Positions 7,220-49,674 of a stretch of 64,000 nt of DNA are shown piece after piece. The first letter of the stretch is position 1, and every line of letters begins with the position of its first letter. The position numbers were made by a program, and so were the translations under genes. Source of the stretch: an uncultured Bacillota bacterium (GTDB lineage Bacteria; Bacillota_I; Bacilli_A; RF39; UBA660); the NCBI GenBank assembly GCA_942493215.1, contig OW818670.1:153209-217208 (forward strand), read 5' to 3'. Below the pieces are notes generated by a model. The model was given only the letters and a program-made list of their open reading frames with translations. It was not told the DNA's origin and did not search any database.

Positions 7220-7840
7220 TTATCTATTTTCTTTTCTTTTACAAATATTTTTTAGTTCACAATTATCACATTCTGGTTTAATAGCTTTACAGTAATACCT
7301 TCCAAATAGTAATAATTGATGATGAGTTTTAAGTAAAGGATAGTCTTTAAACATTTTAGTTAATTTCTTTTCAATTAATAAAACATCATCAGTTTCATTA
7401 GCAAACCCTAATCTTTTACTAACTCTTGCCACATGAGTATCAACCGCAATACATTCTTCACTATAAATAATTCCTAATACAACATTAGTAGTTTTACGTC
7501 CAACACCTGGTAATGATTCAAGAAACTCACGATCATTAGGAACATACCCTATTGGTTCTAATGCCGAAGCTATCCCTTTAATATTTAAAGCCTTTTTATG
7601 ATAGGTACCAACTGTTTTAATTACGTTCTCTAAGTCATCAACAGGAGCCTCTTTTAAGCTTTTCAAATCGGGATATTTTTTAAATAATTCTTTAGTAATA
7701 ATATTTACTCTTTTATCAGTTGATTGGGCACTTAACATAACGGCTATAAGTAATTCATAATCGTTTGAAAAGTTCAATTCACTTTTTGGATTAGGAAATA
7801 ACTTATCTAAATAACTAACAATCTCATTCATGTTTATCAT
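7220..7840 (-). CDS. nth: Endonuclease III
   Basis: HhH-GPD fold (LPGVGRKTTNVV) and a C-terminal 4Fe-4S motif (C-x6-C-x2-C-x5-C). Adjacent to dnaD, as in B. subtilis. Confidence 0.92.
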   Translation of the reverse strand: MINMNEIVSYLDKLFPNPKSELNFSNDYELLIAVMLSAQSTDKRVNIITKELFKKYPDLKSLKEAPVDDLENVIKTVGTYHKKALNIKGIASALEPIGYVPNDREFLESLPGVGRKTTNVVLGIIYSEECIAVDTHVARVSKRLGFANETDDVLLIEKKLTKMFKDYPLLKTHHQLLLFGRYYCKAIKPECDNCELKNICKRKENR

Positions 7841-8474
7841 TTAACCAGTCATAATCAAATAATTTGGAAGGATTTTCTTTTTGAGTATTAAACTTTTTTC
7901 TAGATGCCTCAACATCAGCTGGTGTTTTAATACCCTTCTTCTTCCATTCATAAAGAATCTTATCAATATATCTTAGACTTGTAACACCGTTATAGATAGC
8001 CTCTTTTAAGGCTGCAATAATTATTTCTTCATTATGATCATCATCTAACCATGTACTAATTATTTCATATTCCATCGGTGATAGAGTTCGACCTAGTTCA
8101 TGCTCAAAAGTATTATAAAAGCTCTTACTATCATCTTTCTTTTCTTTATCACCATCAATGATTAGAAATGCCAATTTTTTATATAAAGCATCTAAATTAT
8201 ATTTTTCTTCCCGAATAGTACCCCTTTTAACTACATTAATATCCATTAGTTTTTTTTCAGTCAAATTATTTATTAAATCCATTACTTTAGGTAATGGTAA
8301 ATTTAAATTAGCACTAAAAATCTGCGGATTAAAAAGCTTATCACTATCATTAATTAAGTATATGATAAGTACTAATTCATCACTAGTTAATCCTAGATTA
8401 GTATACTGTTCTAATAGTATCCGCGGTATAACTATATGATTGTCTTTTAAAATTTTCATTACTTTATCCATCAT
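7824..8474 (-). CDS. dnaD: Replication initiation/membrane attachment protein DnaD
   Basis: 216 aa with an N-terminal winged-helix region and a C-terminal DnaD/DnaB_2 domain (...IIIAALKEAIYNGVTSLRYIDKILYEWKKKG). dnaD-nth synteny. Confidence 0.78.
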   Translation of the reverse strand: MMDKVMKILKDNHIVIPRILLEQYTNLGLTSDELVLIIYLINDSDKLFNPQIFSANLNLPLPKVMDLINNLTEKKLMDINVVKRGTIREEKYNLDALYKKLAFLIIDGDKEKKDDSKSFYNTFEHELGRTLSPMEYEIISTWLDDDHNEEIIIAALKEAIYNGVTSLRYIDKILYEWKKKGIKTPADVEASRKKFNTQKENPSKLFDYDWLNDKHE

Positions 8475-8564: not shown

Positions 8565-9590
8565 TTATTGTCTATTATATTCCCGTGAAAAGTAACGTAA
8601 TTGTTTATCAACAGAACTATCACTTAAATCTGAAGCCGTCATAGGACTATAAATTAGTGCCATCCCACTCTGCTCAAATGAATATTTAAATCCCATCTGT
8701 TTTAATATTTCTTTATAGTTTCCTTTATATTCAAAAAATTGTTCTTGAGCACGGTCATCAATCATTCCTTGTGATTGCTCTATAATAGGTGAAAAATCAG
8801 AACTTCTCTTACATGATGGTAATGACTCTTCCGTTAAATAGATTGTTCGACCTGTTATAAATTGACTAATAAAGGTATCACCTAGGTTTTGGAGAGCAAC
8901 ATTACAAAATTGTTCCAAATTCGGATTAGCAAGTATTTTTTCCTTTTCAGCTTGAAGCTGCTCTTTTGTTACACTTTTACAAAGTTCTTTATCTCTTCCA
9001 ATTATCTCATATAGCATGTCAACATAATTCTTGTGTGATGTTTTATATCCACAACTTATCTTACTTCTAAGTGCCTCATCTTGACCATTAACTAAGGAAG
9101 TATTTCCCATCAACTCATTAATTCCGATAGCAAATTCTAATACGGGATAATAGTTAGTCGGACAAGTATTTTGAGTAGCACTAAAATATTTACTATAATT
9201 AGAATCATAATTACCAATACCGATACCTGCTTTTAAGATTTCCATTGGAATATCATATTCTAATACAACAGCGCCCCCTCTGCATCCTAGAAAAAAATAT
9301 TCCTCATTACAACACAAAGTATTAAATGCTAAAACTGCATCCTGTGGAAAAAGGAAAAATGATTTTGTAGTACAATGATGAATACCATCATAATTAAACG
9401 AACTCATTTCCCCAACCCTATGACCAGGAAAGTAAGTATCATCCCCTATATCTTGAGCAACTGTAAAATAGGGTCTACTATAAAAATTCATATAACCCAA
9501 TTGATATAATACCGCTTCTGATGAAAGATCTCTTTTGTTGTATTTTAAATTATTAAATAAATCTGGAACAATTCGATATATTAAAGCCAT
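8565..9590 (-). CDS. Hypothetical protein (341 aa, Cys-containing, no recognisable domain)
   Basis: Long ORF with host-like codon usage. It occupies the slot that holds asnS after dnaD in B. subtilis. No motif could be assigned. Confidence 0.5.
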   Translation of the reverse strand: MALIYRIVPDLFNNLKYNKRDLSSEAVLYQLGYMNFYSRPYFTVAQDIGDDTYFPGHRVGEMSSFNYDGIHHCTTKSFFLFPQDAVLAFNTLCCNEEYFFLGCRGGAVVLEYDIPMEILKAGIGIGNYDSNYSKYFSATQNTCPTNYYPVLEFAIGINELMGNTSLVNGQDEALRSKISCGYKTSHKNYVDMLYEIIGRDKELCKSVTKEQLQAEKEKILANPNLEQFCNVALQNLGDTFISQFITGRTIYLTEESLPSCKRSSDFSPIIEQSQGMIDDRAQEQFFEYKGNYKEILKQMGFKYSFEQSGMALIYSPMTASDLSDSSVDKQLRYFSREYNRQ

Positions 9591-9673: not shown

Positions 9674-10774
9674 TTAGTCATAACAGTTTTTCTTATTAAT
9701 AATATAATTTTTAAGTTCCATATTATTATTAGTTATTACTCTATTTAATACAGCAATCTCTAAATCTAATAATACTTTCTTTAAGAAAGGTCCGGGTTGC
9801 CTATCTAAAATACAACAAATATCATTAGTTGATATCTTTAAATCCTTTAAACTTTTAATAGGTAATCCATCATACCTATTAGTAATAATTCTTCGATCTA
9901 TTCCTTTAATATCACCAACAATAGAAGATATATATAATCCATATTTATATAAATTATAATTATCTAAATTATCTTGTTGTAATAATTCTTGAATTTTAAT
10001 TATTTGATCTTTCTCACCACACGAAAAATTATAAATATCTAGAACATCTAATTGAGTCCATATCCCAATTAAATCCTTAGTTAGCTTAATATTCTTTAAT
10101 AGAGGTATATCTAAATAAGATGTTAAATCTAAATCCAATAACAATTGTTGACCATTTAAAGCATTACTACTTAAGAAGATCTTATTAAGTTCTTCCTTTT
10201 TACGATAATAAGAAATATTCTTTAATAAATAACCGTATTCTTTTATCTTTTGAACTAAATAAGGATCAATCGTAAAGTTTAAGACAGTAGCAAATCGGAC
10301 AGCTCGTAATATTCTTAAAGCATCTTCTTGTAATTTTTGATTGGCATCGCCTACCATTCTGATTACTTTGCAATCAATATCGACTTTCCCATCTAATAAA
10401 TCCATTAATTCACCATTACTATTTAAACATAAGGTATTAATAGTAAAATCTCGTCGTAATAGATCAGTCTTTAAATCATGAATATACTCTACTTTAACAG
10501 GAATACGATTATTAGCATACTTTAATTCCCGTCTAAAGGTCGTAATTTCAAAACGATATTTATTAGAATATAGAGTTACACCCCCATATTGTTCTTTAGG
10601 AAGATTCGCTTCTTCAAATATATCTTTTAACTCACGGGGAGTAGCATCAGTACATATATCAACATCAATACTGGCTCTTTTCATATATAAGTCACGAGGA
10701 AAACCCCCAACTATATAGGCTTGAAAACCACTATTCTCAATTCTCTTAATTATTTTAAGTGCTGTTTCTAACAT
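9674..10774 (-). CDS. cca: CCA-adding tRNA nucleotidyltransferase
   Basis: PolyA-polymerase head domain (GGFPRDLYM...DVDI) and a tRNA-NT C-terminal region. Confidence 0.85.
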   Translation of the reverse strand: MLETALKIIKRIENSGFQAYIVGGFPRDLYMKRASIDVDICTDATPRELKDIFEEANLPKEQYGGVTLYSNKYRFEITTFRRELKYANNRIPVKVEYIHDLKTDLLRRDFTINTLCLNSNGELMDLLDGKVDIDCKVIRMVGDANQKLQEDALRILRAVRFATVLNFTIDPYLVQKIKEYGYLLKNISYYRKKEELNKIFLSSNALNGQQLLLDLDLTSYLDIPLLKNIKLTKDLIGIWTQLDVLDIYNFSCGEKDQIIKIQELLQQDNLDNYNLYKYGLYISSIVGDIKGIDRRIITNRYDGLPIKSLKDLKISTNDICCILDRQPGPFLKKVLLDLEIAVLNRVITNNNMELKNYIINKKNCYD

Positions 10775-12229: not shown

Positions 12230-13825
12230 ATGAATTATGAACATTTTAATGATTTAGGCTTAGATACTAAAGTATTAAAGTCTATTGAAACACTTGGTTT
12301 TGAAACTCCAAGTAAAATCCAAAAAGAAATTATCCCCTTAATATTAAAAGGTTTTGATTGTTTAGGTCAAGCTCAAACCGGAACTGGCAAAACATTAGCC
12401 TTTGCGGCTAGTATTTTATCAAAAATAAATGTTATGGGTAATGTTGTTAAAGCTATTATTTTAGTGCCAACTAGAGAGCTAGCTTTACAAGTAAGTGAAG
12501 AATTTGAAACTTTAAATAAATCTAGTCAATTTAATATTTTGGCTGTTTTTGGTGGTTCTAGTATTGAACTTCAAATTAAAGCTTTAAAAAGAGGTGTCGA
12601 CATTGTTGTTGGAACACCAGGTCGTATCAATGATTTAATTGTTCGTCGCGTTTTAAAATTAGATAATATTGAATTTTTTGTCTTAGATGAAGCTGATGAA
12701 ATGCTTAATATGGGATTTGAAGAAGATATTCATACCATCTTCAATAAAACACCCGAGAAAAAACAAGTATTACTATTCTCCGCAACTATGCCTAAAGCAA
12801 TCTTAAATATCGCTAATAAATATATGAAAAAAGACTACCAACATATTAATATTGCTGAAAAGAGTAATACGTCGATTAATGTTAGTCAGTATTATTATCT
12901 AGTCAATGAGAGAACAAGAACTGAAGCTTTATGCCGCGTTGTTGATGTAAAGAATCCAACTCTCGCTTTAATCTTCTGTCAACGTAAAAGTGATGTTGAT
13001 ACCCTTTTAACCGAATTAGCGAAGCGTAATTATAGTGCCGAAGCAATGCACGGTGATATTGCTCAAAATATGCGAATTCAAACCTTAGAACGTTTTAAAG
13101 AAGGGGCATTCACCTACTTAATCGCAACTGATGTAGCTGCTCGTGGAATTCATGTTAATAATATTGATTTAGTTATTAATTATAATCTTCCTCAAGATGT
13201 TGATTCTTATATCCATCGGGTTGGAAGAACAGGTCGAGCTGGTGAAACAGGTGAAGCCATTAGTTTTGTAACACCTAAAGAAGTAAGATTTCTAGAAGAT
13301 GTTGAACGAATTGCTAAATGTACTATTACTAAATGTGAATTACCTGATCTAAAGAGTATTATCGAATCTAAATATCAACGCATTATTAAAGATGTCAATA
13401 CTTTACTAGATAATAAAGACTATGAGGAATGTTTACCTTATGTCAGAGATATGAATAAAGAAGATTCAATTCGTTTCTCTGCTTCTTTATTAAAAATGAT
13501 GCTAAGTAAAGAAATCGGTTCCGATTTTAATAAAGAAATCGTTGTTAAAGAACGCTATGATCGTCGTGATATTGTTAATAAGAATGCAACTAGATTATTC
13601 TTAACGGTTGGAACAATTGATGGTATTAAAAAAGGATCATTACTTGATTTCTTAAAAGAAACAACTCATATTGATAAAGCTTGTTTTAATAATATTGAAG
13701 TATTAAGTAAATTTACCTTTATGGATGTTGATAATAAAATGGTCGATGAAGTTATTAAGAAACTATCTAATAAAAAATTTAGAGATCGTACTATTAGAGT
13801 TGAAAAGGCAGGAAAAAAGAAGTAA
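12230..13825 (+). CDS. cshA: DEAD-box ATP-dependent RNA helicase (CshA/DeaD-like)
   Basis: Q-motif, Walker A (AQTGTGKT), DEAD, SAT, HRVGRTGR and a C-terminal basic RNA-binding tail. The start was trimmed to ATG 12230, downstream of AAGAAAGAGGA. The track ORF start at 12098 adds an implausible hydrophobic leader. Confidence 0.9.
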   Translation: MNYEHFNDLGLDTKVLKSIETLGFETPSKIQKEIIPLILKGFDCLGQAQTGTGKTLAFAASILSKINVMGNVVKAIILVPTRELALQVSEEFETLNKSSQFNILAVFGGSSIELQIKALKRGVDIVVGTPGRINDLIVRRVLKLDNIEFFVLDEADEMLNMGFEEDIHTIFNKTPEKKQVLLFSATMPKAILNIANKYMKKDYQHINIAEKSNTSINVSQYYYLVNERTRTEALCRVVDVKNPTLALIFCQRKSDVDTLLTELAKRNYSAEAMHGDIAQNMRIQTLERFKEGAFTYLIATDVAARGIHVNNIDLVINYNLPQDVDSYIHRVGRTGRAGETGEAISFVTPKEVRFLEDVERIAKCTITKCELPDLKSIIESKYQRIIKDVNTLLDNKDYEECLPYVRDMNKEDSIRFSASLLKMMLSKEIGSDFNKEIVVKERYDRRDIVNKNATRLFLTVGTIDGIKKGSLLDFLKETTHIDKACFNNIEVLSKFTFMDVDNKMVDEVIKKLSNKKFRDRTIRVEKAGKKK

Positions 13826-13829
13826 TTAT
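13784..13829. repeat. Direct repeat copy 1: native 3' end of cshA (last 14 codons + stop + 4 nt)
   Basis: GATCGTACTATTAGAGTTGAAAAGGCAGGAAAAAAGAAGTAATTAT. It recurs at 14860..14905 with 2 mismatches. Confidence 0.85.
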
Positions 13830-13847
13830 TTTAAATTTTTAGAATGA

Positions 13848-13884
13848 AAGTAGAAATAAAAAGATATGTTCTACTTTTTCTTTT
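13848..13884 (+). terminator. Rho-independent terminator of cshA
   Basis: Hairpin AAGTAGAA-(13 nt loop)-TTCTACTT followed by a U-run (TTTTCTTTT). Confidence 0.6.
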
Positions 13885-14233
13885 GATAAAATTATTATTA
13901 GAAAATGAAAAGATAGGCCTAAAGTGATAACAAACAAATACTGAACTAAATACGAAAAATAAAACATTATTTTAGAAATATTAAATAATGAGATATCAAT
14001 AGAAATGAATATTTTTAGACTTTAATGTAAAAGAAAACGAAATCATTGAAGAATATATAGTTGAAATAATATATGATTAAGCAATTTATGACCTGTTTAG
14101 AATTTAAATATTAAAATAAGTTGATGTATAGAACCAAACTGGGATTTATTCATATCCTTTTACTGTCTACTTTTTATTGGCAAATTTATTTTACAGAGCT
14201 TATTCTTCTTAAATCTATTTTTATTAAAAAAAA

Positions 14234-14265
14234 TTGACATTAATAAAATAAAGTGATAGTATAAT
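14234..14265 (+). promoter_or_regulatory. Sigma-A-type promoter of the inserted orphan gene
   Basis: TTGACA (14234..14239), a 17-bp spacer, then an extended -10 TGaTAGTAT. A perfect TATAAT lies 3 nt further on. Confidence 0.55.
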
Positions 14266-14292
14266 TTGAAAATATATTTTAGGAGGGTTTCT

Positions 14293-14832
14293 ATGGGAAA
14301 AAGAGAATTTTATAATGCATTCATTTTAATAGATCGACTTGACAAAGAATTGGTTAAAGAAATAAGTAGTAATGATATTTTTTGGATTACGAGTGATGAT
14401 AACATTATTAATATGGTCATTAACAGTGTAATTCCTAGTATTCACGAATCTGTCACAAAGAGCAAATTCTTTGGTATTGAAAGGCCTACAAAGGTGATAA
14501 GATTTGATTCTGTAAGAATTTATGTTGAGAAGAAAGGAGATAGGTATTTTGATGTTATTTCACAAATAGAAATAAAAAACGGAATCCAAAGAGAATTTGG
14601 AGAAATTGATGATATAGCATTCGACGGTCTATCTGAGATAAGAGAATCAGATGTTGTTCGCCAATTAGAAGATATAAAAAATTGTATGAATCCAAATCAA
14701 GCATATTGTACATATTGTAGTAAATTAAAGAAAATGAGAGACCTGGCTATAAGTAGATATCATAAACATTCACTAAAAACTGATATAATTACTGATTTTC
14801 AAAGAAAATACGGGCCAAAATGCAAACAATAA
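14293..14832 (+). CDS. Orphan hypothetical protein (179 aa) carried on the cshA-3' insertion
   Basis: ORF with AGGAGGG 7 nt before ATG 14293. The track ORF start at 14266 precedes the predicted transcription start. No recognisable domain. The C-terminus has a CxxC and His/Lys-rich stretch (CTYCSKLKKMRDLAISRYHKH). Confidence 0.6.
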   Translation: MGKREFYNAFILIDRLDKELVKEISSNDIFWITSDDNIINMVINSVIPSIHESVTKSKFFGIERPTKVIRFDSVRIYVEKKGDRYFDVISQIEIKNGIQREFGEIDDIAFDGLSEIRESDVVRQLEDIKNCMNPNQAYCTYCSKLKKMRDLAISRYHKHSLKTDIITDFQRKYGPKCKQ

Positions 14833-14859
14833 TGTATATATTTAAATAAAAAATATAAA

Positions 14860-14905
14860 GATCATACTATTAGAGTTGAAAAAGCAGGAAAAAAGAAGTA
14901 ATTAT
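14860..14905. repeat. Direct repeat copy 2: degenerate duplicate of the cshA 3' end, abutting the NUDIX gene stop
   Basis: GATCATACTATTAGAGTTGAAAAAGCAGGAAAAAAGAAGTAATTAT (44/46 identical to copy 1). Its TAA (14899..14901) sits next to the minus-strand NUDIX stop (14902..14904). Confidence 0.85.
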
Positions 14906-15396
14906 ATTACTTCTTTTATTATGTGATGAGTAAAGTTATAATCTCTATCAATTAATCTATCTTTTATAAGTTTGGGCTTAAAATTAATATCCTCTAATTC
15001 TTTAGCTGTTACCCATCTAAATTCTAGTGGTTTTTCAATTCCCTTATCATTTTCAATAATAGTATAATCTTCTAATCTAGCTTCTTTAATATTGATAGGT
15101 TCAACTAGAAAATAAAAGCCGATTTCATGAAAAGGATTACTATTATGTCCTTTGAAAAAGTTTTCAATAACAGCTATATTATTTATTATCTTAACAGGAT
15201 AACCTAATTCTTCATGCATTTCTCGACAGATAGCTTCATTGCTATCTTCACCCAGTTCAACATGACCACCTGGTAGACAATAAAAGGGGTTATTACATAT
15301 TCTAACAATTAAGAATTTATTATTAGCACAAACAATTCCTCCCACCCGATACTTAAAATTGCCTTCATTAGTTGTTAATTTAACATCTACTGCCAT
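14902..15396 (-). CDS. NUDIX hydrolase
   Basis: Nudix box GGHVELGEDSNEAICREMHEELG. Confidence 0.85.
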   Translation of the reverse strand: MAVDVKLTTNEGNFKYRVGGIVCANNKFLIVRICNNPFYCLPGGHVELGEDSNEAICREMHEELGYPVKIINNIAVIENFFKGHNSNPFHEIGFYFLVEPINIKEARLEDYTIIENDKGIEKPLEFRWVTAKELEDINFKPKLIKDRLIDRDYNFTHHIIKEVI

Positions 15397-15450
15397 ATCA
15401 TCACTCCCAATTTATTATAACACTTAAAAAGAAATAGTTAATACTATTTC

Positions 15451-16926
15451 TTATAAAACAATAGCAAATAAATTGCCTGAACCTCTATTAACTAATTTAC
15501 ATAATGTTTGCTGCAATTTATGACGAGCGTTTTCTGGTGTTAATGATAATTTAGCTTGAATACCTTCTTTAACTATGACATCTAAACTACGACCAAATAT
15601 TTCGCTTTTCCATATATTAGCTGGATTAAGATCATAGTCTTTCATTAGATAATTAATTAATTCTTTACTTTGAATTTCTGATCCAATTATTGGTTCAAAA
15701 GTACTTTCAACATCAACTCTTATCATATGAATAGAAGGAGCAACTGCTTTAAGCTTAATACCATAACGACTACCTTGTCTAATAATCTCTGGCGTATCAA
15801 GTTTCATATCTAATAAAGTTGGTGAAGCTACGCCATAACCAGTTGCTTTAACCATTTTTAAAGCTCCTTTAATTTGATCATATTCATATTTAGCTTCATT
15901 ATAGTCTTGAAATAGCTTTAATAAGTCAGCTTTATTAGTAATATCGACATTAATTATTTCTTTTAACACCTGATTATATAATTCAACTGGTGCTTGTAAA
16001 TTAATTGTTACTTCACCACTAGAAGTATTAACATCAGATAAATAGGCTTTACTAATATATTCACAATCCGTAAAATGGGTCGTAATATCTTCAATATCTC
16101 TTAACTTATCAACACTAATAACACTTTCTTTAATTTTTGAAACATATACTTGTTTTAACCAGTTATTAGGGGCTAAACAAGCAATCCATTCTGGCATATT
16201 AACATTTACTTCTAAAACAGGGAATTCATATAATGCCTCTCTTAAAATATTATAAATGTCTTTTTCAATCATTGTTTCGACACTAATTGGTAAAACCGGA
16301 ACATCATAAGTAATATGAAGTTTTTCGGCTAATCGTTCAGTATCTGGTAACATTGGATGCGTTGAATTTAAAATAACAATAAATGGTTTACCAATATCTT
16401 TTAATTCACTTATAACTCTTGTTTCGGCTTCGACATAATCGTTACGATTTAACTCACCAATAGAACCATCAGTCGTAATAACAATACCAATTGATGAATG
16501 ATCACGAATAACTTTTTCGGTACCAATTTCAGCTGCTTCAATAAAGGGTATTTCTTCATCAAACCATGGTGTTTTTACCATTCTAGGACCATTTTCATCT
16601 TCATAACCTTTACAGTTAGGTATGACATACCCCACACAATCAACTAGTCTAATATTAGCGTAAAAATCATCTATCTTAACCTTAGCAGCATGACTAGGAA
16701 CAAACTTTGGTTCCGTCGTCATAATCATTTTTCCTTGCGCACTTTGAGGTATCTCATCTAAGGCTCTTTTTCGTTCATATTCATCTTCAATATTAGGAAC
16801 AACTAAATTCTCAATGAATTTCTTTATAAATGTTGATTTACCCGTTCTAACAGCTCCTACAACCCCTAAATATATATCGCCACCGGTACGCTCAGTAATA
16901 CTTTTGATAATATCAATTTTTTCCAT
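15451..16926 (-). CDS. spoIVA: Stage IV sporulation protein A (spore coat basement-layer ATPase)
   Basis: 491 aa with an N-terminal Walker A (GVVGAVRTGKSTFIKKF) and a highly conserved SpoIVA body. SD AGGGG precedes the ATG. Confidence 0.92.
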   Translation of the reverse strand: MEKIDIIKSITERTGGDIYLGVVGAVRTGKSTFIKKFIENLVVPNIEDEYERKRALDEIPQSAQGKMIMTTEPKFVPSHAAKVKIDDFYANIRLVDCVGYVIPNCKGYEDENGPRMVKTPWFDEEIPFIEAAEIGTEKVIRDHSSIGIVITTDGSIGELNRNDYVEAETRVISELKDIGKPFIVILNSTHPMLPDTERLAEKLHITYDVPVLPISVETMIEKDIYNILREALYEFPVLEVNVNMPEWIACLAPNNWLKQVYVSKIKESVISVDKLRDIEDITTHFTDCEYISKAYLSDVNTSSGEVTINLQAPVELYNQVLKEIINVDITNKADLLKLFQDYNEAKYEYDQIKGALKMVKATGYGVASPTLLDMKLDTPEIIRQGSRYGIKLKAVAPSIHMIRVDVESTFEPIIGSEIQSKELINYLMKDYDLNPANIWKSEIFGRSLDVIVKEGIQAKLSLTPENARHKLQQTLCKLVNRGSGNLFAIVL

Positions 16927-24722: not shown

Positions 24723-26000
24723 CTAATCCACATTAATTTTAACGCCAACAAATTCACTGGACACCAAACCAATTGGAGCCCAACCGACTTTAGCAGATCC
24801 ACCCCACGTTGAAACATGAACACCATCATTATCAACCCCTGTTATATACATTGCATGTCCTTCAGTAAAAGGATTAGTAACAATCAAATTATCAGGGACA
24901 AAGAAGTTGCCATTACGTGGAAAGATTCCTTTAGGATAATACTTATTATATGAGGTCAGTCCATCAATACGCCAGGCGAAAGAGTTAGTTATAAATTGTG
25001 TCCCATCTGCTATTAAAGCCTTATATTTGTCAGTCGAATCAATATCAAAATATAACTGCTTCTTTATGCTTCCAGTTAGTCCATATTGTTTTAAGTAATC
25101 GTCAAAATAGGAAAGCACTATAGATTTTAATCCAATTATTCCTTTAGGACTGGTCATTTTTATAAACTCATTCCCCTTTTCTGACAATGTATGTACGCCA
25201 CTTGTAATACCATTAAAGTCAACTCCAAAAGTGTTTTTACAAGTATATAAAAAATAATCCACTGTCATATATTCATAATTAAAATCTATATTACCATTTT
25301 CATCAACATTATACATTGGATAACCAAACCTATCAAGGAACTCCTTTTCCTTGCCTTCAAATGCCTTAAAAATACAGTTAGTAATAGCAACATATCCACA
25401 GCCTGCTCCTCCTATATTATTGTGATAAATATTTAATAAAGCATCATAATCATTATTACTAACATTTGGATAATACTTATTTATTATAGAAAACATTTTA
25501 TCACCAAAAAGCAACTCAAGTTCATTATCAAGTGAGAAAACATTCTGATCGCCACCATATTGATATCCCCCATAATTGTATTCGCCAAAAATACTTATCG
25601 GATTACCACTTGCATCAAATCCCTTTATTATATTTCCATTTAGATCATATATAAAAGTCATACCATTAATTGAAACAGTATGATAATTTAAATTATCATA
25701 CCCTAAATTATCACTATTATTTAAACAGTCAGTTATTAATTTTTTTTCTAATTCTTCAATACCATCATTATAATTAGTCCACCAACCGCTAATGTTTTTA
25801 TAACCTATATTCAATTTGTCATAATGGTATTTTAACTTTTGAGCAATATTACTAATGTACATATCTGAACAATTATTTAAGTAGCTTGATATAAATGTTT
25901 GATAAGTTATAGAAGTATAATTATTACTTTCACTATCAAAAGATGCTTTATGTTGTTTCAATAATGAAGTATTTATTCTATTTAAATCATAACTAGCCAA
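24723..26000 (-). CDS. Hypothetical protein with a possible papain-fold Cys/His peptidase core
   Basis: 425 aa, Gly/Tyr/Asn-rich. Candidate catalytic Cys in NIGGAGCGYVAITN and a downstream His in TEGHAMYITGVD. Confidence 0.45.
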   Translation of the reverse strand: MASYDLNRINTSLLKQHKASFDSESNNYTSITYQTFISSYLNNCSDMYISNIAQKLKYHYDKLNIGYKNISGWWTNYNDGIEELEKKLITDCLNNSDNLGYDNLNYHTVSINGMTFIYDLNGNIIKGFDASGNPISIFGEYNYGGYQYGGDQNVFSLDNELELLFGDKMFSIINKYYPNVSNNDYDALLNIYHNNIGGAGCGYVAITNCIFKAFEGKEKEFLDRFGYPMYNVDENGNIDFNYEYMTVDYFLYTCKNTFGVDFNGITSGVHTLSEKGNEFIKMTSPKGIIGLKSIVLSYFDDYLKQYGLTGSIKKQLYFDIDSTDKYKALIADGTQFITNSFAWRIDGLTSYNKYYPKGIFPRNGNFFVPDNLIVTNPFTEGHAMYITGVDNDGVHVSTWGGSAKVGWAPIGLVSSEFVGVKINVD

Positions 26001-26100: not shown

Positions 26101-26176
26101 TGGCGCCTAATGTAGGACTCGGACCTACGACCTATCGGTTAACAGCCGAGTGCTCTACCAACTGAGCTAATTAGGC
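26101..26176 (-). tRNA. tRNA-Asn (GTT), CCA encoded
   Basis: The reverse complement GCCTAATTAGCTCAGTTGGTAGAGCACTCGGCTGTTAACCGATAGGTCGTAGGTCCGAGTCCTACATTAGGCGCCA folds as a cloverleaf. The anticodon loop is cuGUUaa. Confidence 0.9.
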
Positions 26177-32459: not shown

Positions 32460-33170
32460 TTATCCTACTAATTGCTTTTGTTTATCTTTAATAGGAATTT
32501 TATAAAAAAGCCGTCTACTTAAAAAAGACCGCAATTTTATTCTAGCCATTATAAGATTCTTTGAAACAGTACTTTGGTGAGTATTAAGCATTTCAGCAAT
32601 TTCTCTTGTCTTAAAACTTTGCTGATTAAAAAGACCGTAAAAAAGAATTATAATATTTTTTTCCAATTCATTTAAAATAAATAAAGAGGCTTCAATATCA
32701 CTACCTGTTACTTGTTCAATATAATCATTTTCAACATTCTGACCAGTATCTAGTGCTCGTAGTAGTGAAAAATCATCATCTTCATTATTATTATCTAAAG
32801 TGGCTTCTAAACTCATATCGTATGACTTAACTCTAGATAATTGATTTTTAATTACATGTCTAATACATGGTTTTAAATAAGATCTAAAGGTTATTCCTAT
32901 CTCAAAATCAAAGTTTTCAATAGCTCTAACGATAGCAAATACCCCTTCACTAACCAAATCCTCATCACTTACCGTGGCATTATTATCATATCCAAAATAA
33001 GTATGTATCAAAGTTGTTATTATTCTTATATTATGCACTATTAATATATTTCTAGCATTTAGATCACCATTTTTTGCTAAATAAAGATATTTTATGGTAT
33101 CTTCCTCGGAAAGTAATGGTGGTAAATCAAGGCCATCAAAAACATAATTTATTTTTCTATTAGAATACAT
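32460..33170 (-). CDS. RNA polymerase sigma factor, SigK/SigE-like sporulation family (divergent paralog)
   Basis: Region 2 (LSEEDTIKYLYLAKNGDLNARNILIVHNIRII...DLVSEGVFAIVRAIENFDFEIGITFRSYLKPCIRHVIKN) and region 4 HTH (REIAEMLNTHQSTVSKNLIMARIKL). 236 aa with no pro-sequence. Confidence 0.75.
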   Translation of the reverse strand: MYSNRKINYVFDGLDLPPLLSEEDTIKYLYLAKNGDLNARNILIVHNIRIITTLIHTYFGYDNNATVSDEDLVSEGVFAIVRAIENFDFEIGITFRSYLKPCIRHVIKNQLSRVKSYDMSLEATLDNNNEDDDFSLLRALDTGQNVENDYIEQVTGSDIEASLFILNELEKNIIILFYGLFNQQSFKTREIAEMLNTHQSTVSKNLIMARIKLRSFLSRRLFYKIPIKDKQKQLVG

Positions 33171-33330: not shown

Positions 33331-34455
33331 TTAAATACTTTTACCAATAGTTCTCTTTTTTAAAAGATGATTACTTATACATTTTGTTGTAATAATAGTT
33401 CTTTGAGTTCTAAAACACCAGTTGTCACCATCATCAAAAACATCTATCTTTGCGTAAAAAGGTTCAAGAAAAAACTGTCCCTTCATTTCATTTGGCTCAA
33501 TGTAAGCTATACCAAAGAAACTGTGGTTTGATCCATCACGAGCTGGTCTTTCAATTAATGCCATTTCTTTATCTGCTACTAAAGTAATATTTTTATATTT
33601 TGCCGGTATAATGTTATCTAAAGTAGCTCTTCCTTGCAAATCTAACACTAATCTTGATAAACCACAAGTATTTTCATCATTTGCTAATTTATGTTTTATG
33701 AGATTATTTTCATAAATAATAAATTCGGAGAAAATATCTCCAATATTCATAGTGTTTGGTGTAACAACTAATGGTCTTATCTCTCCATCGATTTTTTTAA
33801 ATAAACAAATAATTATGATTTGATTATCAACAACTAATAATCTAACCGAATAATTAATTAAATATGTAGTATTATCATTAAATAGTATTCTTCCATAAGT
33901 ATCTATAACTACCAATTGAGCTAATTCTTCATTAATTTTCTTCCAACCTATATAAATATTTGCCGTTTTATCATATTCTAATAAGTCCAGTCTTAAAGTA
34001 GCTATCTTAGCATTATTAGAATCAAAAATATCTTGCTTACCATTTGCATCAATTCCAATTGGTATGATTAAATGATTTTTACCTTTAGCAACACAAATAT
34101 CATCATATTCTTTTGAAGAATAAGAAATTTTTGGTTCATTAGTTAGATTACAAATAACTAATCTAAATCCCATGTGCTCATTTGTTTTTTTCCCAACCTT
34201 AAATCGTAAATATAAAGGATAACCCTGCTCAATAGGTAATAACTCAACAGTGTCACACTTTATTTTAAATAAGCATTTCTTTTGAAAATAAACCAACTTT
34301 ATAGTTTGTCCATCTACTACTCTAGTTTCAACATAGTATTTCACTATCATACCACTATGAAAAGCACATTTTTTTTCTTCTATTTGACGAATTATTTTTT
34401 CTTTAGTAATTGGCTCAAAACTAATTGATTCTTCAGTGTAATTTTTTACTTCCAT
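33331..34455 (-). CDS. Hypothetical soluble protein (374 aa) between the two sigma-factor genes
   Basis: ORF with no TM segment and no recognisable motif. Same strand as both sigma genes and positioned between them. Confidence 0.5.
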   Translation of the reverse strand: MEVKNYTEESISFEPITKEKIIRQIEEKKCAFHSGMIVKYYVETRVVDGQTIKLVYFQKKCLFKIKCDTVELLPIEQGYPLYLRFKVGKKTNEHMGFRLVICNLTNEPKISYSSKEYDDICVAKGKNHLIIPIGIDANGKQDIFDSNNAKIATLRLDLLEYDKTANIYIGWKKINEELAQLVVIDTYGRILFNDNTTYLINYSVRLLVVDNQIIIICLFKKIDGEIRPLVVTPNTMNIGDIFSEFIIYENNLIKHKLANDENTCGLSRLVLDLQGRATLDNIIPAKYKNITLVADKEMALIERPARDGSNHSFFGIAYIEPNEMKGQFFLEPFYAKIDVFDDGDNWCFRTQRTIITTKCISNHLLKKRTIGKSI

Positions 34456-34582: not shown

Positions 34583-35299
34583 CTAAACAACTTTTTGTTC
34601 ACAAACCTCTTTATCATTAACTTCTGATTTTCCATTATAACCAAGATGATTTTCCATCTTAAATAAATAATCCTTAATCTGTATTAAAGCTGAGGCCTCT
34701 ATTCTACTTACAGTTGATTGAGAACGATTCATTATAACGCCAATCTCTTTTTGAGATAATGGTTCATTATCTTCAAAACCATTACGCATACTAACAACCT
34801 GATGTTCTTTGGCAGTAAGAAAAAATAAAGCTTTTCTAATCTCCTCATATAATTCATATTCATTATAAGCCTCTTCAATATTACAATCATCACATAATGT
34901 ATCTAATAAAGATAATGCATTACCATTATAATAAACCATTTTATTTACACTAATGGTACGATGCCTTTTATTTTTTCTTAATTCCATAAATATTTCATTT
35001 TTTATACATGTCTTAGCATAAGAAACAAAATTAACTCCCCTGTCTAATTTAAAAGAATTTAATGCTTTAAACATTCCTAATATTCCAATACTAATTAAAT
35101 CATCCATATCAAGACCAGGAATAGGCTTAATTTTTAACTTCTCTACTACTAAGTTTATAACAAATAAAGTATAATGCTCTTTAAGTTTATTTCTAGCATA
35201 TTCATCACCAATACTAGCTAATTGAAAATAGTATTTTTTTTCAGCAGCTGATAATTGTTTTATTTCTTTACTATAATAATTAATACTATTTACTTTCAT
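34583..35299 (-). CDS. RNA polymerase sigma factor, SigK-like (SigE/SigK sporulation family)
   Basis: Strong similarity to B. subtilis SigK/SigE through regions 2-4 (LSAAEKKYYFQLASIGDEYARNKLKEHYTLFV...DLISIGILGMFKALNSF...FVSYAKTCIKNEI...SQKEIGVIMNRSQSTVSRIE). 238 aa. Confidence 0.8.
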   Translation of the reverse strand: MKVNSINYYSKEIKQLSAAEKKYYFQLASIGDEYARNKLKEHYTLFVINLVVEKLKIKPIPGLDMDDLISIGILGMFKALNSFKLDRGVNFVSYAKTCIKNEIFMELRKNKRHRTISVNKMVYYNGNALSLLDTLCDDCNIEEAYNEYELYEEIRKALFFLTAKEHQVVSMRNGFEDNEPLSQKEIGVIMNRSQSTVSRIEASALIQIKDYLFKMENHLGYNGKSEVNDKEVCEQKVV

Positions 35300-47119: not shown

Positions 47120-47196
47120 TGGTGAACGATGTAGGATTCGAACCTACGACCTCTACCACGTCAAGGTAGCGTTCTAACCAACTGAACTAATCGTCC
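47120..47196 (-). tRNA. tRNA-Val (GAC), CCA encoded
   Basis: The reverse complement GGACGATTAGTTCAGTTGGTTAGAACGCTACCTTGACGTGGTAGAGGTCGTAGGTTCGAATCCTACATCGTTCACCA has the anticodon loop uuGACgu. Confidence 0.85.
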
Positions 47197-47254: not shown

Positions 47255-47842
47255 TTATCCAATTATTCTTCGATACTGTCCTTCTTTTAATCTCTTAACG
47301 ACCATATCCATCGCATCTACCATTGGTATACTAGGATCCTCTAAACGGGTATACACTAATTGGTTAACAAGATTAATAAATCTATCATCTAAATCTACTA
47401 ATTTACTACTTACACCACTTTTTTGATTATACATTTCATATTTGCCTAAAATCGTAAGATGAGGTATATGATATAATAAATCATATGTATCATAAAAATC
47501 TTTTAGTTCACCATTTTCTCTAAGATATTTAATTTGATTAATAACCGTTAGAGGCGCTACTATTAATAAACCTAGATATCCCATATTAACAAACCCATCC
47601 TCGGTATTAATTGGATAATCATAATCTAAATTAGTAATAGCATAGTCTATTTCTGAAAATACGGATTGGGCTTTAGCAATAAAGTTTCCAGCCACTTCAG
47701 GAGTTACTCTTCTAAATTGATTAAGTACTCTTCTGTGAGCTAATACTTTTTCTTGATTGGGTGTTAAAGATAATTTAAAAAGTTTAGAAGTACATATTTG
47801 ACAATAATGTAGTTCTCCCTTTATTTGTTCATTCAACTTCAT
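47255..47842 (-). CDS. Hypothetical protein, paralog family member 1 (195 aa)
   Basis: Shares the C-terminal signature RFINLVNQLVYTRLEDPSIPMVDAMDMVVKRLK with the two upstream genes. Confidence 0.6.
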   Translation of the reverse strand: MKLNEQIKGELHYCQICTSKLFKLSLTPNQEKVLAHRRVLNQFRRVTPEVAGNFIAKAQSVFSEIDYAITNLDYDYPINTEDGFVNMGYLGLLIVAPLTVINQIKYLRENGELKDFYDTYDLLYHIPHLTILGKYEMYNQKSGVSSKLVDLDDRFINLVNQLVYTRLEDPSIPMVDAMDMVVKRLKEGQYRRIIG

Positions 47843-47869: not shown

Positions 47870-48439
47870 TTAATTTAATGTTGTAGGCTTTTTTTCTTTA
47901 CAAAATTTCTTGGGTATATTATTAATTATTCTAAACATTGCCTCTTCCATAGGCATATCAGGACTATCTAGACGTAATTGTACTAGTTCATTAACAATAT
48001 CATTGAACATAGGATTAAATGCTCTTAAATCAGAACTAATACCATCTGTACGCTCATTTGATAAATTATATTCATTAGTATCACAAGGAAAATATACATA
48101 TTTAGTGCCACAAAGACTCTTAAAGATATCTGCCAAAACGTCTTTATCGCCTCTTTTACACCTACTAATACCTTTACTTACTATTCCACCAAGTTCCGTA
48201 AGATATATTAATCCATGGGCTGTATCACAGCCATAATCATCTGGACAATGAAAACTAACATAAGAATATTTTGCATCAGCATTCACATCATCCAATGCTC
48301 TTTGAACTTCTATTATAAAATCGGCAGCTAAACCAGCATTAACATGTCTAAACTCTCTTAATATCTTTTTTTCTTTTAAATTTTTATGTCTACTTAATAA
48401 TTTAGCTTTTGATTCCTGATAATAATGCATTAAACCCAT
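47870..48439 (-). CDS. Hypothetical protein, paralog family member 2 (189 aa)
   Basis: C-terminal signature MFNDIVNELVQLRLDSPDMPMEEAMFRIINNI. Carries the N-terminal motif LSRHKNLKEKKILREFRHV...FIIEVQRAL shared with the family. Confidence 0.6.
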   Translation of the reverse strand: MGLMHYYQESKAKLLSRHKNLKEKKILREFRHVNAGLAADFIIEVQRALDDVNADAKYSYVSFHCPDDYGCDTAHGLIYLTELGGIVSKGISRCKRGDKDVLADIFKSLCGTKYVYFPCDTNEYNLSNERTDGISSDLRAFNPMFNDIVNELVQLRLDSPDMPMEEAMFRIINNIPKKFCKEKKPTTLN

Positions 48440-48447
48440 ATTATCAT

Positions 48448-49674
48448 CTATCCTTTCTTTGCTTCTGATAGAGTTCTAACTTTTAATGTCATTCGCTTCT
48501 TTAAAAGATCTATAGCTTTATTAAAAACCTCCTCCATAGATATATCTGGCTCATCTAAACAAATCTTTACTAAATCATTAAAGATTGTTTTAAATTCCAA
48601 ATTATGCATTAATAATTTCTGATTAAGTCCATTTTTTGTTGTATACATATCATAATAACAATCAGAATCAAAGCTAAAATAATCTACTCTTGATAGATTA
48701 AAAACCTGTTCATATACTTTACATTGATCACCTGGCTTGTAGTAAACGCCTTTACAAAAGCCTATATGATTAGCTGGAATTATATACTTCATAGACGAAA
48801 AAATGGTATTTATGTTTGATTTTGGATTAGCAATAGTTAAGTCTCTGGCTTCAAATTTCTCATCGGCTATAACTGATTTAGCATTAGCAATAAATTGTGC
48901 AACCATATCACAATCCATATTTTTAAATCTTTGTAATACTCTTATTTGTCTTAATTCTGCTTCTTGTTGTGGTGTCATATATAATCTTAATTTGTTTTTA
49001 ATAATTAATGATATATTATGTAAGAAATCATTATTATCAAATAATTCTACCTCATTACCAGTTATTTTTTCACCTGTTTTTAATTCGTTAATAACTAGTT
49101 TCATAGCAAAACCCATTGATATACTAGGTCTTTCTAATCTTACTTCAATTAAACGTTTAACTAGGTCTTCAAATCTTGCATCAAATTTTATTAATTGGGA
49201 ATTAATTTTACCATCATTATATAAGTTATAACCAAAATCAAAAATAAATTGAAAACCATTAATACGTTCTAAATAGTCATCTATTTGAGAAACATTTTCA
49301 AAATTTTTTCTATCTTTTTCATCTTGGTCAATTACAACATTTAGTTCACTTTTTCTATCAGCAGGAATAATAATTGTTTTTGTTAATGGCGTATTTATTA
49401 AGCCCTGATTATCATCATTTTTTGCTATTCCATAAGGAGTATAAAAAGCTTTATATCTCTTACCTTTATCACTTTTTTCTTGCTCAAAAAAATTTTTAGC
49501 TTCCACTATAAAATCGTTCATTAAATATGAATCAACAAATTGAAACTCACGTAAAATTATGGCTTTAGCTTTTCTTAATCCTTCGACCGATTTATCTTCT
49601 TGTGTAGGTATACCTAAAGTTCCTTTTATTTTTATCCCTAAATCAGATAAATTATACTTTTTTAAAATTTTCAT
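48448..49674 (-). CDS. Hypothetical protein, paralog family member 3 (408 aa; two tandem copies of the family domain)
   Basis: Two repeats. Each has the N-terminal RxLxxFxxVxxxxAxFI motif and a C-terminal FxDLVKxLIExRLExPxISMxxAM motif (RFEDLVKRLIEVRLERPSISMGFAMKLV and IFNDLVKICLDEPDISMEEVFNKAI). Own promoter (TTGACA-17-TATCAT) and SD. Confidence 0.6.
   Translation of the reverse strand: MKILKKYNLSDLGIKIKGTLGIPTQEDKSVEGLRKAKAIILREFQFVDSYLMNDFIVEAKNFFEQEKSDKGKRYKAFYTPYGIAKNDDNQGLINTPLTKTIIIPADRKSELNVVIDQDEKDRKNFENVSQIDDYLERINGFQFIFDFGYNLYNDGKINSQLIKFDARFEDLVKRLIEVRLERPSISMGFAMKLVINELKTGEKITGNEVELFDNNDFLHNISLIIKNKLRLYMTPQQEAELRQIRVLQRFKNMDCDMVAQFIANAKSVIADEKFEARDLTIANPKSNINTIFSSMKYIIPANHIGFCKGVYYKPGDQCKVYEQVFNLSRVDYFSFDSDCYYDMYTTKNGLNQKLLMHNLEFKTIFNDLVKICLDEPDISMEEVFNKAIDLLKKRMTLKVRTLSEAKKG

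Follow-up and report, generated by a model that had tools for sequence, protein, structure and literature searches.

A direct repeat of the cshA gene end around a single orphan gene in an uncultured Bacillota bacterium, possibly the remnant of an integrative element

The 3′ end of cshA, a gene for a DEAD-box RNA helicase, is present twice in a stretch of 64,000 nucleotides from an uncultured Bacillota bacterium of the UBA660 lineage (contig OW818670.1, positions 153,209 to 217,208; this whole stretch is hereafter called the window, and its first letter is position 1). The two copies enclose a single small gene, an open reading frame (ORF) of 179 codons named ORF179, and the second copy abuts a convergent gene for a NUDIX hydrolase. 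The locus is a real but fairly ordinary scar of a past DNA insertion, of a type that is common, and what is new about it is the target gene cshA, the unusual host lineage and a cargo gene that is almost without a family. As for the agent, we tentatively read the locus as a decayed integrative element similar to the cis-mobilizable elements (CIMEs), a reading to which we assign a probability of roughly 0.45. The copy now fused to cshA is probably the replacement brought by the insert, and the downstream copy, called the relic below, is probably the displaced native end, a polarity that we infer from the bases carried by related genomes.

The duplicated cshA end and its counterpart in relatives

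The repeat comprises the last 19 codons of cshA, the stop codon and 8 nt, 65 nt in all, and its copies (13769-13833 and 14845-14909) lie at an offset of 1076 nt and differ by five mismatches (92% identity), with identical stretches in the form of a 10-nt left edge and blocks of 18 and 21 nt. Outside these 65 nt identity falls at once to ~23-47% in 40-nt windows, which is the level along the rest of the 1076-nt offset, and no direct repeat of the window is longer. The original prediction had described a 46-nt part of this repeat, which we found at 13784-13829 and 14860-14905 with two differences; it does include the stop codon and 4 nt as described, together with 13 sense codons instead of the 14 counted before. 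No further copy of the 46-mer occurs in the window, and 100 dinucleotide shuffles yielded 0 matches. The 65-nt repeat is non-random and sharply bounded. The second copy was also correctly placed directly against the NUDIX gene, since its stop codon (14899-14901) touches the NUDIX stop codon (14902-14904). The features of the locus are as follows:

12230..13825, + strand: cshA/deaD-type DEAD-box RNA helicase gene, 531 aa (Pfam DEAD 9e-49, Helicase_C 7e-32, DbpA 3e-16)
13769..13833, + strand: direct repeat copy 1, attL-like, the cshA end in current use (..NKKFRDRTIRVEKAGKKK*) plus 8 nt
13849..13884, + strand: terminator-like hairpin of the present cshA (AGUAGAA/UUCUACU), then UUUUCUUUU, read from sequence
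13885..14233, no strand: AT-rich non-coding spacer within the insert, ~350 bp
14234..14262, + strand: sigma-70-type promoter-like site TTGACA-17 nt-TAGTAT with an upstream TG, a consensus match only (10/12)
14281..14286, + strand: Shine-Dalgarno (SD) sequence AGGAGG, 6 nt upstream of the ATG at 14293
14293..14832, + strand: ORF179, the cargo gene, 179 aa, of a two-member protein family
14845..14909, + strand: direct repeat copy 2, the attR-like relic, a displaced and non-functional cshA end (..NKKYKDHTIRVEKAGKKK*)
14891..14917, no strand: palindrome whose 12-bp stem is built from the terminal codons of the relic and of NUDIX, by folding
14902..15396, - strand: NUDIX hydrolase gene, convergent, 164 aa (Pfam NUDIX 7e-14)

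The Pfam domains agree with the identities proposed earlier for cshA and the NUDIX gene, and the gene order at ~12-16 kb reads metallophosphoesterase (-), cshA (+), ORF179 (+), NUDIX (-), spoIVA (15451-16926, -) and the gerA operon (+), in a window of 28.7% GC on a contig of 1.49 Mb. As far as can be read from the sequence, the DbpA-type C-terminus of cshA is still complete, with three replacements that look conservative, and the gene would have acquired a new, weaker terminator-like hairpin. Folding of 13810-13890 (-12.9 kcal/mol, z -1.5) gives weak support for this hairpin, which is unlisted by a consensus terminator scan because it has fewer than three G-C pairs. The spacer between cshA and ORF179 measures 467 bp and is the fourth-largest of the window, unusually long and AT-rich for a compact genome (19.7% GC at 13830-14292 vs 25.4% for all intergenic DNA). 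ORF179 appears to stand under its own predicted promoter and to end at the old bidirectional terminator. The promoter, SD sequence and ORF were all found as predicted, although promoter-like matches are frequent in this AT-rich stretch (21 vs 14.2 +/- 3.9 in shuffles). At the palindrome, AAAAGAAGUAAU from the last relic codons pairs with AUUACUUCUUUU from the last NUDIX codons, folding at -11.9 kcal/mol (z -4.2) on the + strand and at -9.9 kcal/mol (z -5.0) on the - strand, where UUUUUU comes next, and we read it as a predicted bidirectional terminator for ORF179 (+) and NUDIX (-). An Rfam scan of the region returned only sub-threshold hairpin matches, located at this palindrome.

The nearest relatives are metagenome-assembled genomes designated ‘Bacilli bacterium’, whose cshA homologues are 70-73% identical, with none closer than 73% in the searched collections. 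A scan of genome contigs with cshA gave only relatives whose identity did not exceed 52% (47% for the loci ranked highest), since the source genome and its clade lay outside its reach, and the closer ones were obtained by protein search and contig look-ups, so that eight related loci could be compared. In these distant relatives (~70% amino-acid identity) the cshA end is single in 8/8 cases, which agrees with the predicted insertion at the cshA 3′ end; an arrangement with both 46-mers in all relatives, which had been named as the sign of an old fixed duplication, was not seen, a second cshA end being present in 0/8. Two of the loci are syntenic with the window: L089/L090 has the order metallophosphoesterase(-), cshA(+), a 325-aa unknown(-) and spoIVA(-), and L094/L095 has the order dnaD-cca-HU...metallophosphoesterase-cinA(-), cshA(+) and a NUDIX-family gene(-) that lies 15 nt past the cshA stop codon. 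Because of the shared synteny (dnaD-cca-HU...metallophosphoesterase-cshA-convergent gene, and spoIVA in L089/L090), it is the same locus that is being compared.

The junction in L094 has the same design as the palindrome at 14891-14917: a hairpin takes its left arm from the last cshA codons (AAAAAGGAAAUAA), and its right arm comes before the NUDIX stop codon (z -4.1/-4.3 on the two strands). In two lineages, then (L094 6965-7000 and window 14891-14917), the Lys-rich last codons of cshA provide one arm of a shared bidirectional terminator, with the genes 0-15 nt apart. The downstream copy would preserve a type of junction that is found uninterrupted in a relative, and an ancestral tail-to-tail arrangement of cshA and NUDIX, as had been proposed, is plausible given this hairpin and the convergent NUDIX-family gene of L094/L095. 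It was also observed that the slot downstream of cshA, up to spoIVA or whichever conserved gene comes next (window 13826-15450; L089/L090 1760-3041; L094 6982-8700) differs in every relative, containing the 325-aa unknown, or an NrtR-type NUDIX gene with ADP-ribosylglycohydrolase and NAD genes, or the 164-aa NUDIX gene with ORF179, and the region downstream of cshA appears to be a local variable spot.

Comparison with the relatives also helps to tell the native copy from the other. Four coding sites distinguish the two, namely TTT/TAT (F/Y), AGA/AAA (R/K), CGT/CAT (R/H) and the synonymous AAG/AAA, and so does a fifth site after the stop codon, with the relic carrying A every time. In a neighbour-joining tree of residues 1-505, the window cshA groups with P0009, P0015 and P0017 in 134/200 bootstraps, and the tails of these three proteins (YKNH, YRGH and YKNH) fit the relic YKDH and not the functional FRDR. 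The relic base is found in 5/6 relatives at the K site, in 5/7 at the synonymous site and in 4/6 at the Y site; the relic residue at the H site occurs in 3/3 members of the likely sister clade, with R in the other clades. The relic looks ancestral at 3-4 of the 4 coding sites. The idea that an element had brought a replacement copy fits this result, as relatives carry the downstream base robustly at two sites, in the majority of cases at a third, and within the likely sister clade at the fourth. It is the coding copy that carries the changes, of which three are A-to-G, contrary to the AT bias, and three are non-synonymous. This pattern is opposite to what the plain decay of a dead copy would give; it fits an end brought by the insert as a substitute. 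D, TIRV and AGKKK are common to both copies and absent from all relatives, so that a very closely related lineage would have to be the source of the substitute end. When identity to three clades was followed along cshA by a sliding comparison, the signal with respect to a recombination breakpoint inside the gene was mixed and uninterpretable.

ORF179, the gene between the repeats

The repeats enclose no gene other than ORF179, which looks like a real one. It has a synonymous-codon score of -0.88, inside the range of 53 genes of the window (mean -0.76, sd 0.07, z -1.7), and its own frame is the best of six, the other five scoring -1.01 to -1.24. GC content decreases from the first to the second and third codon positions (GC1 0.38 > GC2 0.29 > GC3 0.20). 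The gene thereby passes the codon-usage test that had been suggested for recognizing a spurious ORF, having host-like codons in its best-scoring frame.

Homologue searches for ORF179 took in about 15 billion proteins. A word-indexed search of 5.8 billion clustered proteins returned only the self-match, while an exhaustive HMMER pass over 1.84 billion representatives gave one true relative, P0122, a protein of 180 aa (E 5e-8) with 30% identity to ORF179 from the first to the last residue and with the common motifs VEK-G--Y-D-I--IEI and GEID-IAF. Three other HMMER matches, to acyl-carrier-protein repeat arrays, look spurious and were rejected, and neither a profile search nor translated scans of viral and metagenome contigs gave further relatives. 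Searches of Pfam, PHROGs and NCBIfam yielded only chance-level matches (E >= 0.005), far below the curated cut-offs where such exist and none of them common to both family members; PADLOC gave 0 families, and the PDB held no related sequence (best profile match E 0.07). The suggested role in defence or addiction finds no support in PADLOC, PHROG, Pfam or NCBIfam. The CTYC motif that had been singled out is not conserved in P0122. De novo birth and a spurious ORF were both rejected, as the frame-specific codon score, the order GC1>GC2>GC3 and the full-length homologue at E 5e-8 speak against them; because ORF179 has an end-to-end homologue in a different context, it is not a de novo gene. The earlier suggestion of a duplication-mediated gene birth fails as well, given that full-length homologue and the lack of relationship between ORF179 and cshA.

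P0122 is found on metagenome contigs of 1.8-1.9 kb (~25% GC), between a LysM/peptidoglycan (PG)-binding protein and a Crp-type regulator, and it has its own TGnTATAAT promoter, AGGAGGG SD sequence (locus L092) and terminator. The upstream gene (L092 1-384 / L093 384-1118) codes for a protein with PG_binding_1 and triple LysM domains and has internal DNA repeats of ~150 nt, and the downstream regulator appears split into ORFs of 75 aa and 132 aa. AlphaFold2 gave no usable fold for ORF179, with predicted local distance difference test (pLDDT) values of 35 for the single sequence and 38 for the two-sequence alignment, so the structure prediction proposed for this protein was uninformative. With low confidence, ORF179 may be small and cytoplasmic, its N-terminal half being rich in beta structure and its C-terminal third basic and helical; on reading its sequence, neither a signal peptide nor a membrane segment was seen. 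Past the TAA stop codon of ORF179 (14830-14832) the frame continues with CIYLNKKYKDHTIRVEKAGKKK*, up to 14901, so that one stop codon separates ORF179 from the relic. A former fusion of the two was rejected because P0122 ends at the same position, and the shared frame is probably a coincidence, with a chance of 1 in 3.

Origin of the insertion

The locus has the topology of a Campbell-type integration: a gene end that is directly repeated, a target gene left whole, and the native end displaced beyond the insert. In the scenario that we propose, a foreign segment of ~1.08 kb would have entered the last 19 codons of cshA, carrying the terminator-like hairpin, the AT-rich spacer, the promoter and ORF179. 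The chromosomal cshA end would have recombined with a cshA end carried by the incoming DNA, to which it is 92% identical, the crossover lying at the left edge of the repeat (~13769-13778). The incoming copy would have completed cshA and brought its own terminator, and the native end would have been shifted 1076 bp downstream, where it would no longer be translated as cshA. This relic would still form half of the terminator hairpin shared with NUDIX and would now also end the ORF179 transcript; that NUDIX keeps its terminator may explain why the relic has not lost its 3′ half. The agent would be a site-specific integrative element aimed at the cshA 3′ end, which later lost its recombinase and other genes, leaving the repeats as attL and attR (the left and right attachment, or att, sites) and ORF179 as the surviving cargo of a CIME-like remnant. 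We infer the foreign origin of the insert and, above all, the involvement of an integrase, as well as the status of the 65-nt repeats as att sites in a functional sense; base rates, the att-like layout and a long AT-rich spacer, as expected of decayed DNA, would argue for an integrative element.

CIMEs are elements that have kept attL and attR and lost the genes for integration and transfer (PMC5704250), and integrase-less remnants of this kind are documented and very common (PMC7563491, PMC5704250). Classical CIMEs measure 1.2-13 kb and carry cargo, and microCIMEs measure 130-220 bp (PMC7563491). In Firmicutes they are decayed remnants of ICEs (integrative and conjugative elements) or IMEs (integrative and mobilizable elements) at gene 3′ ends, such as fda, rpsI, rpmG, rplL and tRNA-Lys in streptococci. 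The locus described here resembles them in having direct repeats that include the 3′ end of an intact target gene, in lacking integration and transfer genes, and in being small with one cargo gene. It differs in that its 1.08 kb falls slightly below the classical size range, that it stands alone and not in tandem with a live element, and that it is hosted by a spore-forming ‘Bacilli bacterium’ lineage, uncultured and with a small genome, instead of by a streptococcus. In structure (flanking repeats with the target-gene end and no mobility genes) the locus matches a CIME; a demonstrable parent is what it lacks.

Several observations weigh against an integrative element or against parts of the scenario. 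As the original prediction had noted, no recombinase is present; neither an integrase nor any other mobility gene occurs in the 64-kb window. Six-frame translations of the spacer contain no Pfam-detectable pseudogene. As an att target, cshA is not reported in the searchable literature, and phage, plasmid, viral and metagenome collections yielded no related full-length element (ICE, IME or prophage) at such an att site; neither a parental ICE or IME nor a cognate integrase is known. The insert had no match in the phage collection and just four short, AT-rich, chance-level matches in the plasmid collection (76-93 nt, ~74% identity, E 2e-3), and pattern scans of viral and metagenome contigs did not find the repeat in phage, viral or metagenome sequences. 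The search for related elements was, however, limited by the databases, which hold no genome closer than 73% cshA identity. Of the integrative-element footprint proposed originally, the repeat layout fits, but a recombinase, a pseudogene trace, a related element and an attP were all missing. Codon usage and GC of ORF179 are host-like and carry no compositional mark of foreign origin. The locus of P0122, the sole homologue, has neither a cshA neighbour nor a flanking repeat. The polarity of the copies rests on four sites, with a bootstrap of 67% for the sister clade and mixed informative sites along the protein. As regards an empty site in relatives, L094 has a single cshA end convergent on a NUDIX-family gene, but the relatives are distant, and that gene encodes a 276-aa protein of NrtR type with 39% identity over 38 aa to the 164-aa NUDIX of the window, so that L094 is not a clean empty site because the two NUDIX genes are not orthologous.

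Insertion driven by RecA from a related strain, with no mobile element, is an unlikely origin in our estimate, though the strongest competitor of a decayed element. Here a donor carrying cshA, terminator, spacer and ORF179 would recombine within cshA on the left, and on the right an illegitimate joint ~57 nt before the recipient cshA stop codon would leave the recipient's last 19 codons as the relic; in a variant, a circular fragment with 65 nt of cshA would integrate Campbell-style. Homology-facilitated illegitimate recombination (HFIR) is a described mechanism, in which the insert comes to lie beside a homologous anchor and the donor and recipient anchors can remain as direct repeats (PMC3240628). 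Such an event predicts the same polarity, the functional copy being the donor allele and the relic the native one, and needs no lost integrase, which fits the missing recombinase and pseudogene. The derived features shared by both copies (D, TIRV, AGKKK) would then point to a close-relative donor, and with zero spacer between cshA and NUDIX, only joints inside the cshA tail spare both genes, so that selection would favour this outcome. However, with ~65 nt of homology, HFIR and Campbell events occur rarely and are known mainly from transformation and conjugation experiments, natural gene-end relics of them are uncatalogued, and a genome in which ORF179 stands natively downstream of cshA did not turn up in the searches. 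Flanking repeats of gene ends are far more often att sites.

An origin in situ appears improbable. The cshA tail would have been duplicated locally by slippage or unequal exchange, with the ORF179 DNA landing between the copies, or a larger duplication would have been trimmed, and the copies would have diverged in place. It would account for the copies being each other's closest relatives (92%) with features found in no relative, and for the host-like composition of ORF179, and the polarity is statistically weak with 4-5 differences, all four changes falling on copy 1 with a chance of 1/16. It requires, on the other hand, two or more independent events at one spot, shows no other similarity at the 1076-nt offset, and would have a selected coding copy take 3-4 changes (three A-to-G, three non-synonymous) against 0-1 in a largely unconstrained relic; a local duplication with a separate insertion is the least parsimonious option and a poor fit to the polarity. 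A diverged tandem duplication of the 3′ part of cshA was rejected: identity is at background beyond the 65 nt and BLASTP of ORF179 against cshA returned nothing, and an insert without similarity to cshA beyond the repeat is therefore not such a duplication. Very improbable, in our view, is a unit that is still mobile, a minimal att-flanked cassette moved by an integrase from another part of the genome or from an incoming element, in which ORF179 would give a selectable benefit such as defence or addiction. A CIME can be mobilized in cis once an incoming element has joined it by accretion, the two repeats here are intact and share the identical 10-nt left edge and 18- and 21-nt blocks, and ORF179 keeps its own promoter, ribosome-binding site and terminator (all predicted), as does P0122; but a second copy or a relative of the cassette occurs in no collection searched, the window has no integrase and no PADLOC or PHROG matches were obtained, and the 8% divergence between the repeats suggests age. 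A further long shot, given still less credence, is that ORF179 and P0122 represent a new, extremely rare accessory family with a conflict-type role (defence or addiction), carried by minimal promoter-gene cassettes that insert into housekeeping-gene tails with a substitute tail and are moved by a trans-acting recombinase or the host RecA.

Other systems, other loci and significance

Besides CIMEs, the decayed integrative element that we tentatively favour can be set beside other known arrangements. Staphylococci carry pseudo-SCC elements or SCC (staphylococcal cassette chromosome) remnants at the 3′ end of rlmH (orfX), in which cargo without ccr lies between repeats of the end of a functional housekeeping gene. 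The repeats of SCC are integration-site sequences of ~15-30 nt, recognized by serine recombinases. The locus is alike in having cargo without a recombinase between direct repeats that copy the end of a functional housekeeping gene, and unlike in that its repeat is 65 nt long and assignable to no recombinase family. It resembles an integron cassette as a ~1-kb unit with a single ORF at a defined recombination site, but this candidate was rejected on account of its own promoter-like site, the lack of attC-type R''/R' GTTRRRY cores (by eye), the lack of IntI in the window, and flanks that are direct repeats of cshA. A miniature inverted-repeat transposable element (MITE) or insertion sequence (IS) was likewise rejected, as the insert ends have no terminal inverted repeats and the duplication is imperfect and 65 nt long, not 2-15 bp.

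Elsewhere in the window, a 341-aa ORF without a Pfam match (8565-9590, -) lies between dnaD (7824-8474) and cca (9674-10774), genes which adjoin in L094 with a 30-nt gap; it looks like a second lineage-specific insertion, and no flanking direct repeat was found at this ORF. Three tandem ORFs (47255-47842, 47870-48439 and 48448-49674, all -), next to tRNA-Val (47120-47196), apparently form one uncharacterised family by eye; the 408-aa member looks like a double copy, and none of the three has a Pfam match. Two paralogous sigma-factor-like genes (by eye; 32460-33170 and 34583-35299, -), with a 61-nt repeat of 74% identity, flank a 374-aa ORF at 33331-34455, and a 425-aa ORF without a Pfam match (24723-26000, -) lies beside tRNA-Asn (26101-26176).

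If the proposed origin is true, the locus would illustrate, cleanly and on a small scale, the way in which a compact, spore-forming, gut-type bacterium acquires a gene while an essential neighbour stays unharmed: a new end and terminator for that neighbour come with the incoming DNA, and its previous end is kept as the terminator of the convergent gene. On the same condition, cshA would join the housekeeping-gene tails that are used as integration sites. In practical terms the locus may serve as a marker by which the parent element or an empty site could be recognized as closer genomes appear. It also points to a protein family with two members among ~15 billion sequences, and beyond this it leaves present knowledge of integrative elements as it is.

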